A stretch of DNA of 46,618 nucleotides from UHGV virus genome UHGV-1365300; one strand, written 5' to 3'. Below are positions 1-46,618 of the stretch, piece by piece. This DNA comes from a virus. A program made the position numbers and the translations under genes. The first letter of the stretch is position 1, and every line of letters begins with the position of its first letter. The notes below the pieces were generated by a model that did no database searches, was not told where the DNA came from, and saw only the letters and a program-made list of their open reading frames with translations.

Positions 1-720
1 GGCTCGCTGTTCATCACTCACATCACGCACAACCTCCCACATGTTTTCAGGCGACCAGCAACACCAGACATGTGCGCCGGTAATCCGGTGTGCTCGCCAG
101 GCATCGAAGTAATCCGAAACCAGGTATGTCCATTCAGTCTTATCGCCGATGGGTGTCACTGCACCTCGCGTAAGTCTTCCGCGAGTGTACTCCTTGCTGA
201 AACCAGCGCGAAATGACACGCTTTCATCGTCTGCCATAAAAGCCACGTTGCATGGCGTCATGGTTCCAGCCATATAGAGCGGTATCGCCACCAGTTCACA
301 GGTTTTGCCGGTTATGGTGTCGCCTCCTGCTTTTTCCATGATGGCCGCCACTTCTGCCTCTGTCAGGTAGTCAGAAGCATGGTTGACCTTCGGAAGTTGC
401 TTTCTAATTGCCTCAAGTTTTTCGCGTGGGTGCATATTCAGAAATCCGGCCAATGCCTCCATTGACTCCGGAAACGTCATTCCTGACAGCTTCATTAGCC
501 AGGTGATTCCGCTGCCGTTTCCGCACTGGTTGCAGATGGCGCCGCCGTCACCTTTGTAGTCAAGGTGGTCATCAAATCTGAACCGATCATTGCCGCCACA
601 GCTCGGGCATGGCTGATGCTTGCCATTGAAAATTCTCATGTCGACATTAACTATCGACATGATGGCAGCCTGCCAGTTTCCTGCCATTAAAGGCTCTATA
701 TCCTTCCAGTCGTATCGCAT
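1..720 (-). CDS. DNA primase, N-terminal part (the rest runs off the left edge of the window); Zn-ribbon CPSCGGNDRFRFDD...CNQCG
   Basis: Reverse-strand ORF not in the track because it is truncated at the edge. ATG at 720..718, preceded by an in-frame stop and AAGG. Translation MRYDWKDIEPL...KHQPCPSCGGNDRFRFDDHLDYKGDGGAICNQCGNGSG is typical of phage primase zinc-binding domains. It is divergent from the helicase gene. Confidence 0.55.
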   Translation of the reverse strand, partial: MRYDWKDIEPLMAGNWQAAIMSIVNVDMRIFNGKHQPCPSCGGNDRFRFDDHLDYKGDGGAICNQCGNGSGITWLMKLSGMTFPESMEALAGFLNMHPREKLEAIRKQLPKVNHASDYLTEAEVAAIMEKAGGDTITGKTCELVAIPLYMAGTMTPCNVAFMADDESVSFRAGFSKEYTRGRLTRGAVTPIGDKTEWTYLVSDYFDAWRAHRITGAHVWCCWSPENMWEVVRDVSDEQRA

Positions 721-40446: not shown

Positions 40447-41133
40447 TCATGGTTTTCCCTCCTTTGGTGCGGCTGGCAGCGGCATCCAGTGAGTAGCCGG
40501 TAACTCGCGGCCGGAAATAACTGACGTGAAGAAACGATAATTTGCAGCAGAGCACTCCATTTCGCCAACGTTAACCACCACTCCCATTGCGGTAAGCACG
40601 ATATCGCCAATTTCCGGCATCTGCTCGCTTACCGGAATCCATTTACCCGGCACGGTAGCGGGTTCACTGCCGGGTGACTGCGGGGCGGCTGCGAGCATGG
40701 CGGCGCGGCGGTTTACCACCTCGATGAGCGCCTCTTCGGCATCACACAGGCAATCAGTAATACCGCGGCGATCGCCGTCGAAGTCATTCAGGTCGAGGCG
40801 TATACGAGCAACCTTCTGCAATGCGTCCAGCACATCATCCGGCACTACCGGCGCTGGCTGCGCGTGGCGATAGAGCTTCTCTCCTGGCCCCAGTGGGCAT
40901 AGCATCCTGATGGATGGACCAAGAGGTGCGCATATTCCTGCATTCTGTGGCTGATACACCTCGGCCACCGGCTCGCTGTCCATTGCGGCCAGCGCCAGTT
41001 CAGCAAGCTGCAGGTCAGCCAATATTTCTTCTCGTGCGCTTTCGAATGCTGTCTGTCGTGATGCCATTTTCAGCGCTTTGACGTTTTCACGAGCGCGTTC
41101 GTGAAGCTGCTCTCTGGTTAATTTGCTGGTCAT
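40447..41133 (-). CDS. Protein with C-terminal DUF551-like domain
   Basis: 228 aa. C-terminus GKWIPVSEQMPEIGDIVLTAMG...THWMPLPAAP is the DUF551 pattern. Confidence 0.5.
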   Translation of the reverse strand: MTSKLTREQLHERARENVKALKMASRQTAFESAREEILADLQLAELALAAMDSEPVAEVYQPQNAGICAPLGPSIRMLCPLGPGEKLYRHAQPAPVVPDDVLDALQKVARIRLDLNDFDGDRRGITDCLCDAEEALIEVVNRRAAMLAAAPQSPGSEPATVPGKWIPVSEQMPEIGDIVLTAMGVVVNVGEMECSAANYRFFTSVISGRELPATHWMPLPAAPKEGKP

Positions 41134-43798: not shown

Positions 43799-43865
43799 TT
43801 TTGCTCCTCGAATAATCCATGAATACCATTAAGCCAGAATTGAAAAATAACATCTCCATCATCTT

Positions 43866-44012
43866 ATTTGATCTCAAATCCAATCACTTTATCTTGAGGA
43901 AAGCACCATGAGCCATCGTCTTCATCTCCAGACATAACTTCGTATTTTTTGCCAGTAGTTATGTAATCACTACTTTTTGCGTCAACGCATATCACCACAT
44001 CGCCTTTTTTCA
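43866..44012 (-). CDS. Hypothetical protein, 48 aa; first gene after the leftward promoter
   Basis: MKKGDVVICVDAKSSDYITTGKKYEVMSGDEDDGSWCFPQDKVIGFEI with RBS AAGAGGTGATGAAGA. Confidence 0.35.
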
Positions 44013-44045
44013 TTCTTCATCACCTCTTTGTTGTTGGTGTGGTAA

Positions 44046-44074
44046 CTATACGATGGCGCTCAATCTACGTCAAT
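44046..44074 (-). promoter_or_regulatory. Leftward promoter TTGACG-17-TATAGT (spacer begins TAGATTG) for the early block 44012 down to 39545
   Basis: Reverse complement of 44046-44074. Confidence 0.6.
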
Positions 44075-44099
44075 ATGGTGGTTAAAATAAAATTTGGTT

Positions 44100-44510
44100 A
44101 GTAGTCACTTGCAGTTATCAATTTCATAAGTAATTGATATTTATAGACCACGCTCAACCAATTCAACCCAATATTTTTTTGGATTTAACCATATATAACC
44201 GTTTAGATTCATTAACTTACATGCTGTTCAACCATTTATCCCTTAACCATTTATCCTGAGAGAGATAACTGGAAAAAGTTGGATGTATTTTTGTGCTCAA
44301 AAAAACGCAAAGCAAAAAATGGGTTGAATTGGATAAATACTACTATCTATTGATAATAATAGTAGTAAATACATATACATAGTATGTAAAAACACTTATC
44401 CAAACGCTTATCCAACTTTAACCATTTCAACCCGAAGCACTACCAGCGAACAAGCAGGTAAGGTGTTGCGCCGATTTATTTAATATTTTATAATCACAAA
44501 AAATAAGGAG
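44100..44510. repeat. AT-rich intergenic region with iteron-like and DnaA-box-like repeats
   Basis: Tandem 14-mers TCAACCATTTATCC/TTAACCATTTATCC (44229-44256). TTATCCAAA and TTATCCAAC (44396-44404, 44408-44416). Inverted repeat CCAATTCAACCC (44158-44169) / GGGTTGAATTGG (44321-44332). A-tracts. Confidence 0.5.
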
Positions 44511-44515
44511 GAGTT

Positions 44516-44731
44516 ATGTACAGACCTGGCAGCGATTTGGCTCACGTTTACCATCACGTATCTGGCATTAATGTCAATGAAGTTAAGCTCTTGCCGTCAA
44601 GCGAGATAGTTGGCATGGACATAGCAAGATTCAGGATGAACCTTTCCAAAGTTTCAAAGGATGCTGGCATGATGTTCATCACACGTTTTGATAACCACAA
44701 AGAAATCCTCACCATCAGAAGGATCTCATGA
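44516..44731 (+). CDS. Hypothetical protein, 71 aa
   Basis: Excellent RBS AAGGAGGAG. Stop overlaps the next ATG. Confidence 0.5.
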   Translation: MYRPGSDLAHVYHHVSGINVNEVKLLPSSEIVGMDIARFRMNLSKVSKDAGMMFITRFDNHKEILTIRRIS

Positions 44732-46218
44732 TGGCAATAAAGACCATTTACGACCTTACAGCAGACATCAAAAAAGATGCATGGTATGACATAACCAGAC
44801 CGCCAGGCCTTGCTGGTGAGATAGCTGAAGACATCGCCGCTGGTGAAGTACGAGAACAGCCAAGGTTGCGCGCTGTGGCAGCACTGCATGAGCTGGTCAT
44901 TGCCAGCAAAGGTAAAATTAAAACCCCGAGCGGCATGAAAGGAAACTTGCTGACCATCTGCATTGCTGATTCTGCCGGTGGTAAAGACCGTTCTCAAAGT
45001 CACTTCAAGATGATCGCCCGCGATATCGACAAAGGTCAGCACGTTTTTGGCCGCATAGCATCATCAAAAGATATCGGGCGCACACTGATAAACCACGAAG
45101 GCGTGGCAACATTTATTATTGATGAATGCCATGGTCTTTTTGGCGTGATGTCACAAAAGAATGGCGCCACCTATATGGCAGAGCTTGGCTCTGAAATTCT
45201 CTCAATCTATTCAGACCGCCTGAAAAAATTCTCTGACCTTGATGCCATTAATGCGAAGGAGTTGCTGGAGAAGGAGTTAAAAAAACTGCGCGCAGAAGTT
45301 AAGGATAAGGGCATTGTTGAAACTGAGTATCGTCGACGTGAAATGCATCTCGAAAAAGAAATCTTATGGCCTATCCAGAACGGGATAGAAGACCCTATAT
45401 TTTCAATGATGTGCTTCTCAACGCCTGAAAAGCTGGCAAGCATCATCTGCTCTGAAAACATTGGCACCGGCCTTATTGGTCGTGCGATATTCATCAAAGG
45501 AAAAGATGGCCGAGCAAGGAAAGCAAAAAAATTCGGTCACAAGACGCCGCCATCGCTTATCGAGAAGATGAAACAGATAGAGAAATCAGCACCAACCGTG
45601 GCGAGGTACGAAGATACAATGGTTGAGCAACTTGCTGAATCTCTTGATGATCGTTTTGAGGAGTTGCGGAATGATGTTGCGCTAGGAGCTGTAATATCAC
45701 GTTCATTTGAGCAGGTAGAGAAAGTGGCAACAGCTCTTTCTGCTGGAAACAAAGGAGTAATTACAGAGGCCATGCTGATGTGGGCTTTTTGCTTTGTCTG
45801 TGAAAGCCTTACTGACGTTATGAGCATGCTTAAAGTGAATGAGAGCCAGGAGGAACTTGGCACTATGGCGCGATGGAACGAGATTAAAAACCGCATTGAA
45901 AACGTGCTATCTGGTAGAACACGCGATGATTCAATGCCTCAGTCAAGCATTATTCAGCGCGTAGTTAAAACAAAGTCGCTAAAAGGACTGGCAGAAGCTA
46001 TTGCTCGTACCAATGGAGAGGATTTTAATTTCGGCGCAAAAACACTTATCACGCCAGTAATGCAGGCATTAATGGAGTCAAGAGCTATTGATGCTGTCGG
46101 TTGCGGTTACTGGATTAACGACGCGAGCAAATTTGAGTCGACAAAAATGAGCATTAAATTCTCTCAGATTGTTGAGGGTATCGGCATGAATATGGCGGCG
46201 CAGAGAGGTTGGAGATGA
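44728..46218 (+). CDS. Large protein of unknown function, 496 aa (DExH-like FIIDECHG motif, no P-loop)
   Basis: Coupled to the upstream 71-aa ORF. No GK[ST] Walker A. Central coiled coil. Not assignable to any family by eye. Confidence 0.65.
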   Translation: MMAIKTIYDLTADIKKDAWYDITRPPGLAGEIAEDIAAGEVREQPRLRAVAALHELVIASKGKIKTPSGMKGNLLTICIADSAGGKDRSQSHFKMIARDIDKGQHVFGRIASSKDIGRTLINHEGVATFIIDECHGLFGVMSQKNGATYMAELGSEILSIYSDRLKKFSDLDAINAKELLEKELKKLRAEVKDKGIVETEYRRREMHLEKEILWPIQNGIEDPIFSMMCFSTPEKLASIICSENIGTGLIGRAIFIKGKDGRARKAKKFGHKTPPSLIEKMKQIEKSAPTVARYEDTMVEQLAESLDDRFEELRNDVALGAVISRSFEQVEKVATALSAGNKGVITEAMLMWAFCFVCESLTDVMSMLKVNESQEELGTMARWNEIKNRIENVLSGRTRDDSMPQSSIIQRVVKTKSLKGLAEAIARTNGEDFNFGAKTLITPVMQALMESRAIDAVGCGYWINDASKFESTKMSIKFSQIVEGIGMNMAAQRGWR

Positions 46219-46430
46219 AAAATAAATGGATTGAATGTAGTAAAAAATTACCAGAGGAAAATGAAAAAGTAATTTTTTATCCAGTAGATGATGAGCCGAT
46301 ACATGGAGTTTATCTGCAAGGACACTGGTTTCAGTGTGTATCTTGGTGCAGCATCGACTCTGATGAAGTTCTTGATAACATGGTAACAATTGATGTTACT
46401 CACTGGATTCCAGCTCCAGAAAAACCATAA
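46209..46430 (+). CDS. DUF551-like protein, 73 aa
   Basis: KWIECSKKLPEENEKVIFY...THWIPAPEKP pattern. Start overlaps the stop of the 496-aa gene. Confidence 0.55.
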   Translation: MEMKNKWIECSKKLPEENEKVIFYPVDDEPIHGVYLQGHWFQCVSWCSIDSDEVLDNMVTIDVTHWIPAPEKP

Positions 46431-46431
46431 A

Positions 46432-46463
46432 CAAAAACCCTCCATCAGGAGGGTTTATTTTTT
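46432..46463. terminator. Bidirectional intrinsic terminator A5-CCCTCC-ATCA-GGAGGG-TTTATTTTTT
   Basis: Strong hairpin plus T-run. Confidence 0.8.
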
Positions 46464-46618
46464 AGTGCTTCAAATAGCTCTTCTGGTTTATACAGCCTTT
46501 TTCTGATGGCGCCGCTGTAACGGATATCCTGACCGTCATCAGTAATCAGTATCGGTAGACCTGCATTATCGGCGGCGCATACCTCATCGAAATTATTATT
46601 AATGATGCAGCGTAGTTT
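46445..46618 (-). CDS. Partial ORF (C-terminal 57 aa), start beyond the right edge of the window
   Basis: ...DNAGLPILITDDGQDIRYSGAIRKRLYKPEELFEALKNKPS*, ending inside the terminator hairpin. Confidence 0.3.
   Translation of the reverse strand, partial: KLRCIINNNFDEVCAADNAGLPILITDDGQDIRYSGAIRKRLYKPEELFEALKNKPS

Follow-up and report, generated by a model that had tools for sequence, protein, structure and literature searches.

Origins of replication of the SaPIs, the pathogenicity islands of Staphylococcus aureus, contain six to twelve iterons of five or six nucleotides (nt) around an AT-rich centre, at least two on each side and in opposite orientation, and their sequences are specific to the replicon (PMC9371898; Ubeda et al. 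2007, cited there). The SaPI protein Rep is a self-loading MCM-like helicase that reads the 5-6-nt iterons through a winged helix and is encoded next to a primase (PMC9371898). DUF3987 proteins are likewise MCM-related replicative helicases, of superfamily 6 (SF6), with a winged helix-turn-helix at the C-terminus and an adjoining or fused primase (PMC4889955); one of them, AgaPH, was shown to be a helicase that requires its Walker A and B motifs (PMC11724360). In published genome descriptions of T1-like phages, no origin could be identified (TLS, PMC11447400; SU57, PMC7718038). Here we analyse a locus of the virus genome UHGV-1365300 (46,618 base pairs (bp), hereafter the window), in which AT-rich repeats precede the gene for a 496-amino-acid (aa) protein. 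We propose that positions 44092-46432 are probably a phage replicon cassette, consisting of an MCM-like helicase and an upstream iteron origin read by a protein of the cassette. An initial annotation of the same DNA had marked this end of the window as a self-contained module with origin-like sequence grammar and a protein of unknown function.

Identification of the 496-aa protein as an MCM-like helicase

Direct searches of Pfam, NCBIfam and Protein Data Bank (PDB) sequences with the 496-aa protein and with the 71-aa protein encoded upstream of it returned nothing significant, and the family profile of the 496-aa protein had no significant match among PDB sequences. A word-indexed homology search found close relatives only in two runs and five distant ones in a third. 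An exhaustive profile search retrieved 834 relatives at 50% clustering, many of them 750-900 aa long. Among the long relatives checked against Pfam, one carries N-terminal Prim-Pol and PriCT_2 domains and another Zn_Ribbon_Prim and Toprim_3. The PHROGs match was to phrog_33132 ('DNA primase'; E 0), with further matches to the C-terminal halves of the primase-helicase families phrog_3022 and phrog_25777. Pfam DUF3987 was matched by 20 of 43 diverse relatives at E ≤0.01 (best 2.6e-11). When the alignment of the 496-aa family was compared by hhalign with that of the DUF3987 helicases of sister and T1-like phages, the two aligned with 95.2% probability (E 2.6e-8) over 233 columns.

The AlphaFold model built from the 43 diverse sequences had a mean predicted local distance difference test score (pLDDT) of 90.8 and a predicted template modelling score of 0.88; a model built from 15 close homologues (pLDDT 41.6) was not used. 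The predicted fold is that of an MCM-like AAA+ protein, not that of a superfamily 3 (SF3) helicase. The best matches in BFVD were the 'Replicative DNA helicase' of Salmonella phage LPSTLL, followed by primase-helicase fusions and DUF3987 proteins. Residues 405-463 form three helices and then a β-hairpin in the model. The C-terminus aligns with that of DUF3987 helicases, and a weak profile match to the winged-helix region of RPA32 (E 0.05) was also obtained.

Residue conservation was assessed over the 43 relatives, which extend down to 19% identity. K86, D132, E133, G248, R252 and R325 are invariant in all of them, and the AAA+ catalytic set is thus present: a Walker A lysine, the Walker B DE pair, a candidate arginine finger and a candidate sensor-2 arginine. 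The Walker A motif is a variant. All relatives but P0077 (GKG) and P0167 (AKE), hence 41 of 43, follow the pattern [ST]xxGK[DE], and an acidic residue directly follows the lysine in 42 of the 43 sequences (again except P0077). Since the other catalytic residues are conserved, this suggests a P-loop that is unusual but still active. The initial annotation had noted FIIDECHG without a P-loop; the motif and the absence of the canonical GxxxxGK[ST] are correct, but the variant ADSAGGKD, with its invariant lysine, had been overlooked. The long central coiled coil that it described corresponds to a long helical insert at residues 148-212.

The identity of the 496-aa protein as a stand-alone MCM-like replicative helicase, in a sister subfamily to Pfam DUF3987, is secure from these profile, fold and residue comparisons; ATPase and unwinding activity are presumed. 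The protein had been described as belonging to no recognisable family, which no longer holds, as PHROGs, the profile-profile match and the predicted fold place it in the DUF3987 superfamily of SF6, and its synteny is conserved (below). Of the suggested roles of origin-binding initiator or loader, that of a replication protein acting at an origin is plausible, but the protein more likely is itself the replicative helicase, rather than loading a different one. Relatives with 87% identity are annotated as 'replicative DNA helicase' or 'DNA primase', and others as 'putative P4-specific DNA primase' or 'hypothetical protein'.

An iteron-type candidate origin upstream of the helicase operon

The divergent intergenic region upstream of the operon (44014-44515, 502 bp) has ~30% GC compared to 48% for the genome. 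The hexamer TTATCC occurs in it 5 times (0.36 expected) and T[TC]A[AT]CC (TYAWCC) 14 times (1.27 expected); neither count was reached in any of 2000 dinucleotide-preserving shuffles. TYAWCC reaches a density of 27.9 per kb in the region; elsewhere in the window it is 3.2 per kb, a ~9-fold difference. Within the region, positions 44332-44392 hold the 60-bp stretch with the highest AT content (83%) and the lowest stability of the whole 46.6-kb sequence, with a nearest-neighbour ΔG of -59.7 against a mean of -84.3 (standard deviation 5.4).

This anatomy was compared with that of iteron origins. Where at least six short (5-6-nt) iterons are expected, 14 hexamers are found. Where at least two oppositely oriented iterons are expected on each side of an AT-rich centre, two on the minus strand (44322 and 44331) and four on the plus strand (44396, 44408, 44418 and 44427) face the core. 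The candidate origin also adjoins the helicase gene, lying directly upstream of its operon, and is replicon-specific, being exchanged with the genes in phage DP01 (below) and varying in iteron sequence by lineage.

Most of what the initial annotation had seen in this DNA is borne out, namely its AT-rich character, the origin-like grammar, two repeat copies 12 bp apart (CTTATCCAAAC at 44396 and CTTATCCAACT at 44408), the strong ribosome-binding site and the strong bidirectional terminator (Table 1). Two descriptions needed revision. The tandem repeat at 44227-44256 (TTCAACCATTTATCC / CTTAACCATTTATCC) is present, but with a period of 15 bp rather than 14. In the inverted repeat, given as 12 bp with arms 150 bp apart, each arm spans 19 nt (44158-44176 and 44314-44332); the arms are 89% complementary and separated by 137 nt.

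The layout of two minus-strand iterons, core and two to four plus-strand iterons is kept in the relatives' loci L004, L018, L019 and L020, and in L015 with one minus-strand copy degenerate. The inner iterons lie 63-65 bp apart, start to start, in the window and in these five loci, and the same-orientation minus pair stands at the same place in L018, L019 and L020 (in L015 as one copy plus the degenerate one). The iteron sequence itself differs by lineage. The window combines TTATCC with TYAACC, the latter making up half of the copies, while the iterons read TTATCC[CA] in L003, L008, L015 and L018, TTACCC or TTACTC (TTACYC) in L019 and L020, TTATCCG in L054 and ATATCC in L055. At the positions homologous to the left iteron cluster, L008 has TTATCC. 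A 13-mer in the AT core, CATATACTTATAG, is exact in L015 and L018 and has one mismatch in L002 (DP01) and L020; the window holds only variants of it with insertions or deletions.

A further semi-conserved element, CATA(T/C)ACTTATAG, was noted at the right edge of the core (window 44370-44390; L002 3756; L020 2147; L015 3612; L018 3634). It is common to cassettes with different helicase types, and DP01 and L020 share a 17-mer here. Possible functions are those of a start site for the primase, a promoter -10 element or a site for a host factor.

Exchange of the whole cassette between sister phages

The window is the complete, circularly permuted genome (~46.6 kb) of a Klebsiella siphovirus. Phage VLCpiS13f (unclassified Caudoviricetes) is 96% identical to it across the region under study, and Salmonella Skatevirus phages are among the relatives with an 87%-identical 496-aa protein. 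A primase open reading frame (ORF) is split by the window ends; joined, it encodes 297 aa from ATG to stop, is almost identical to the VLCpiS13f primase and matches Zn_Ribbon_Prim in Pfam (E 4.2e-13). Because this ORF runs across the ends, the window is a permuted complete genome whose two ends adjoin. The initial annotation had placed a phage primase/helicase at the opposite end of the window; the primase is real, but its gene physically adjoins the module, lying directly downstream of the helicase operon and convergent to it. After the primase follow genes for an SNF2/ResIII helicase, a RecE-like nuclease (DUF3799), an Erf annealing protein and a single-stranded DNA-binding protein (SSB).

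By blastn, 44092-46432 has no DNA similarity to DP01, between flanks that are 94% (left, 44004-44091) and 93% (right) identical. The module is thus self-contained, as the initial annotation had claimed, and exchangeable. Its GC content is lower than that of the backbone. In the same slot DP01 has its own ~500-bp intergenic region and genes for an AP2-like 79-aa protein, a 517-aa DUF3987 helicase (Pfam E 2e-35) and an ASCH protein, so that the iteron region is exchanged along with the genes. Sister phages such as DP01 hold a functionally homologous cassette in this slot. Since the slot is filled there by another helicase cassette, the difference is, on these alignments, an allelic replacement of a replicon cassette and not the insertion of accessory genes. 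Pairwise BLASTP between the 496-aa and the DP01 517-aa protein found nothing, and an iterated hidden Markov model search reached the DP01 sequence marginally (E 0.02); judged by the profile-profile comparison, through which alone the link is seen, the two helicases are distant homologues.

In the DP01 intergenic region (L002 3500-3830), a similar AT-rich core has TGGGGTAAA / TTACCCC repeats to its left and, to its right, repeats of the GCCCCA type at a spacing of 9-10 bp. The DP01 small protein has an AP2-like DNA-binding domain (below the Pfam threshold) and is a natural candidate for the iteron reader of that cassette. To the left of the swap, the gene at 43864-44013 (minus strand; 49 aa, phrog_4927) is absent from DP01, a separate indel (43802-44003) beside the swap boundary.

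The small partner gene and gene order

The operon upstream of the primase has three genes, and both junctions are ATGA overlaps, in line with the earlier description of a 71-aa gene translationally coupled to the 496-aa gene. At the place of the 71-aa gene, all relatives' loci examined have a small gene. In most of them it belongs to phrog_28399, which aligns plausibly with phrog_28700, the group of the 71-aa protein, and does so at 73% probability by hhalign (E 3e-5); the two groups are probably distant homologues. In Vibrio phage K375 (L053 1556-1750), a phrog_28399-type gene is likewise followed by a canonical DUF3987 helicase gene. As it stands before both helicase subfamilies, the pairing of small protein and helicase is older than the subfamily split. 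The motif of phrog_28399 is WPF...GKKF.T....KRI, and further loci with it are L054 2790-2987 and L056 2759-2992. When the small-protein profile was compared with PDB and Pfam, a small β-barrel (uS17, OB domain, FeoA) was hinted at below threshold only, and no fold is claimed. The 71-aa protein is a conserved helicase partner that could act as an iteron reader, a loader or a regulator.

Relatives with as little as 33% identity retain the arrangement of a long intergenic region followed by the small gene, the helicase gene and the Zn-ribbon primase gene. The primase adjoins the helicase in all seven relatives' loci for which downstream DNA was recovered, and is fused to it in distant relatives. 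In L020 (2293-6797) and L021 the small gene, helicase, Zn-ribbon primase and SNF2/ResIII helicase make up a single operon read in one direction, with stop-start overlaps.

The third gene encodes, as had been suggested, a DUF551 protein, with a score of 38.9 bits against a cut-off of 22. Its place is taken by other genes or by none in relatives; by this comparison, the gene is an accessory passenger and not a conserved part of the module in which the initial annotation had placed it. The second DUF551-like domain that had been noted in the early block is confirmed at residues 164-224 (E 3.7e-9) of a 228-aa protein (40447-41133, minus strand), and in L018 a 192-aa DUF551 protein is encoded downstream of the helicase.

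Table 1. Coordinates of the features of the candidate replicon cassette and its borders
Feature	Position	Strand	Basis or remark
Leftward sigma-70-like promoter, TTGACG - 17 nt - TATAGT	44045..44073	-	Promoter scan, 10/12 matches; within the conserved left flank, not part of the exchanged DNA
Exchangeable replication cassette (origin-like DNA, small partner gene, helicase gene, accessory gene)	44092..46432		blastn against DP01
Left (distal) iteron cluster, T[TC]A[AT]CC starts 44154, 44163, 44185, 44228, 44236, 44243, 44251	44154..44256	+	Contains 15-bp tandem TYAACCATTTATCC x2
Two minus-strand iterons (GGGTTGAATTGGATAA), starts 44322 and 44331	44322..44336	-	Hexamer scan; abut left core edge
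AT-rich core, candidate DNA unwinding element	44332..44392		AT content and nearest-neighbour stability
Right iteron cluster, starts 44396, 44408 (both CTTATCCAA), 44418, 44427 (TTAACC, TTCAACC)	44396..44432	+	Hexamer scan
Candidate rightward promoter, TTGCGC - 17 nt - TATAAT	44466..44494	+	Read from sequence
Shine-Dalgarno sequence AAGGAGGAG	44505..44513	+	Sequence
Small helicase partner, 71 aa, phrog_28700	44516..44731	+	ATGA overlap with helicase gene
MCM-like (SF6, DUF3987-superfamily) AAA+ replicative helicase, 496 aa	44728..46218	+	Profiles, predicted structure, invariant residues
Variant Walker A SAGGKD, residues 82-87, K86 invariant	44971..44988	+	43-relative alignment
Walker B D132-E133 (FIIDECH)	45121..45126	+	Invariant in 43 relatives
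GLIGR motif, G248 and R252 invariant; R252 candidate arginine finger	45469..45483	+	Aligns with GLSER of DUF3987 helicases
R325, invariant, candidate sensor-2 arginine	45700..45702	+	43-relative alignment
C-terminal winged-helix-like domain, residues ~405-463, candidate iteron reader	45940..46116	+	Predicted structure; putative fold assignment
DUF551 (PF04448) protein, 71 aa from ATG 46215, 73 aa from TTG 46209	46215..46430	+	Pfam E 1.6e-9
Bidirectional intrinsic terminator, 9-bp stem, T-runs on both strands	46435..46456		Between helicase operon and convergent primase gene; in conserved right flank
3' end of primase gene (Zn_Ribbon_Prim)	46445..46618, resumes at 1-720	-	ORF joining, Pfam

Proposed mechanism and alternatives

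We propose that the ~370 bp between the two divergent promoters would act as the origin and that the TYAWCC iterons would be bound by a cassette-encoded protein. The most likely reader would be the C-terminal winged-helix domain of the helicase; the alternative is the 71-aa partner. With the inner iterons facing each other over the 63-65-bp AT-rich core, two helicase assemblies may load at the core, melt it and begin bidirectional unwinding, as shown for the self-loading helicases of the SaPI Rep/ori system. The 496-aa AAA+ protein would form a hexameric helicase from the same domain that is fused to a primase in many phages, and as a stand-alone enzyme it would work with the neighbouring zinc-ribbon primase, the phage SSB and host DNA polymerase III. 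The origin assignment, which rests on anatomy, conservation and co-exchange, is well supported as a prediction; we infer origin activity, the identity of the iteron reader, self-loading and the role of the 71-aa protein.

Several observations weigh against this proposal. The aspartate of the variant Walker A replaces the Ser/Thr that normally binds magnesium, hence the ATPase activity is presumed. The 496-aa protein itself gave no Pfam match to DUF3987 (PF13148), even at E up to 1, which together with the matches of its relatives sets it in a sister subfamily outside the Pfam family as delimited; the hhalign match to the DUF3987 helicases covers the C-terminal half alone. The TTACCCC-like repeats of DP01 resemble those of L019 and L020, yet the DP01 helicase is of the other type, and in the small set of loci available, the kind of iteron does not follow from whether the small protein is of type A or B. 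Covariation of iteron and reader was tried over ~10 loci, a sample too small for the purpose and blurred by the DP01 repeats. The cumulative GC-skew minimum, at 44444, fits an origin here but coincides with the switch in transcription direction and is thus confounded. Recombination-dependent replication could dominate late in infection, given the RecE-like nuclease, Erf and SSB, and the position of the iterons between divergent promoters means that they could be operators.

The last two points are the core of another explanation, in which the helicase assignment stands but a regulator such as the 71-aa protein uses the repeats to time or autoregulate two divergent early operons, and replication starts elsewhere or by recombination. 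The right iteron cluster does stop ~35 bp upstream of a -35 hexamer, that of the candidate rightward promoter; this hexamer is weak (3/6), so that the promoter, a putative assignment, fell below the report level of the promoter scan. However, 14 sites over ~280 bp and the least stable 60-bp core of the genome far exceed what operators need, and the inverted inner spacing of 63-65 bp over an AT core is kept in divergent relatives, which fits the SaPI ori rule (PMC9371898). In the exchange, the region also follows the helicase cassette and not the leftward operon, the promoter of which belongs to the conserved flank. We consider the operator explanation unlikely.

It is still less probable that host DnaA opens the core at TTATCC sites acting as weak DnaA boxes and that the phage helicase is then recruited. 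The initial annotation had read the repeats as DnaA-box-like, and TTATCCAAA and TTATCCAAC do match the DnaA box TTATCCACA at 8/9 and 7/9 positions. However, TTATNCACA is absent from 44014-44515 and occurs only twice in the whole window, and only the TTATCC part is repeated, as the ACA part varies (TTATCCCGA, TTATCCATT, TTATCCGAA). Half of the window copies are TYAACC, and the TTACCC, TTACTC and ATATCC of relatives break the box; this lineage-specific drift makes a phage-encoded reader likelier than DnaA. The clean mosaic boundaries, the GC content below that of the backbone and the DUF551 passenger gene would suit an inserted accessory cassette with a role in exclusion or anti-defence, or a selfish element, dispensable for replication; the initial annotation had offered the first two roles. 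This we regard as very improbable. The DUF3987 helicase cassette in the same slot of sister phages indicates allelic replacement, every relative examined carries a helicase of the same superfamily, and primase synteny is kept down to 33% identity. The replication genes checked included no other hexameric helicase of the replicative type; the only further helicase seen was the SNF2/ResIII-like one, and the PADLOC models had no match to the three cassette proteins. All three explanations are thus less likely than the replicon cassette. A pac site was also considered and dropped, the terminase genes being several kilobases away in relatives and nothing resembling pac repeats being present here.

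A variant of the replicon cassette, which we hold tentatively and as the less probable form, gives the small protein the leading part. The 71-aa protein could be an unrecognised, widely conserved, β-rich origin-recognition or loading subunit of phage SF6 helicases that reads the lineage-specific iterons and partners the GK[DE] helicase subfamily. If so, the pair would constitute a two-component initiator distinct from the self-loading SaPI Rep, and the locus would hold the first mapped origin for the T1-like and Skatevirus-like phage group.

Implications

The replicon cassette offers a precise candidate origin in a group related to T1-like phages, with iterons around a 60-bp candidate unwinding element at 44332-44392. 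It shows that the candidate ori, small protein and helicase travel between phages as one cassette, and incompatibility or specificity between replicon cassettes is predicted. The analysis corrects misleading labels of the 496-aa family ('DNA primase', 'P4-specific primase' and 'hypothetical protein') and draws attention to the conserved 65-77-aa partner protein and to the GK[DE] Walker A variant. In the engineering of Klebsiella and Salmonella siphoviruses, and in their use in therapy, the region is best left undisrupted. In two classified Drexlerviridae (Webervirus K6PH25C3, L051; Tlsvirus DanielBernoulli, L052), a DUF3987 helicase gene lies between a DNA methyltransferase gene and the lysis cassette, with a short upstream gap and no adjacent primase. 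The origin-like architecture may therefore not extend to T1 or TLS proper.

Comparison with known replicons

The closest mechanistic analogue, by shared architecture, is the SaPI Rep/ori self-loading helicase. Like Rep and PriRep, the 496-aa protein is an MCM-related AAA+ helicase (pre-sensor II insert clade, SF6-like) with, in its case, a putative C-terminal winged-helix domain and a primase that is adjacent, or fused in distant relatives, and both systems have short, replicon-specific iterons that flank a central AT-rich region in opposite orientations. The SaPI ori, however, lies just downstream of rep, whereas the candidate origin in the window lies upstream of the operon. The window further differs in its translationally coupled 71-aa partner, in its GKD Walker A and in being a virulent-type siphovirus of an enterobacterium rather than a satellite, and iteron binding is predicted here.

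With the DUF3987 (PF13148) helicases of T1-like phages, phage N4 (dns), Corndog and AgaPH (PMC4889955, PMC11724360), the protein shares profile-profile homology over the sensor-1, arginine-finger, lid and C-terminal domains, an MCM-like fold, a fused or adjacent primase of the Prim-Pol or DnaG type and, in sister phages, the genomic slot. It differs in falling below the Pfam threshold and in its Walker A, which is [ST]xxGK[DE] in the window subfamily and PPSAGK[ST] in T1-like DUF3987 helicases. The long insert, a helical hairpin, follows the Walker B strand in the window protein, whereas a comparable coiled segment of the DP01-type protein separates Walker A (K120) from Walker B (D217 E218). 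The insert has apparently moved between the two subfamilies.

Compared to archaeal and eukaryotic MCM proteins, with which identity is ~11-15%, the 496-aa protein lacks the N-terminal OB-fold and zinc tier and begins with a short helical domain. The α protein of the satellite phage P4 is an SF3 (D5-like) helicase fused to a primase. It resembles the system described here, with its ori/crr, in that one phage protein joins origin recognition (a candidate function in the window) and helicase, linked to a primase; the fold of the window protein is MCM-like and not SF3. The ori-O-P regions of lambdoid phages are likewise exchangeable cassettes, in which otherwise similar phages exchange an iteron origin along with the replication proteins cognate to it. 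In lambda, however, the O gene itself contains the iterons, the initiator O is no helicase and host DnaB is brought in by P, whereas the phage described here brings its own helicase and primase.

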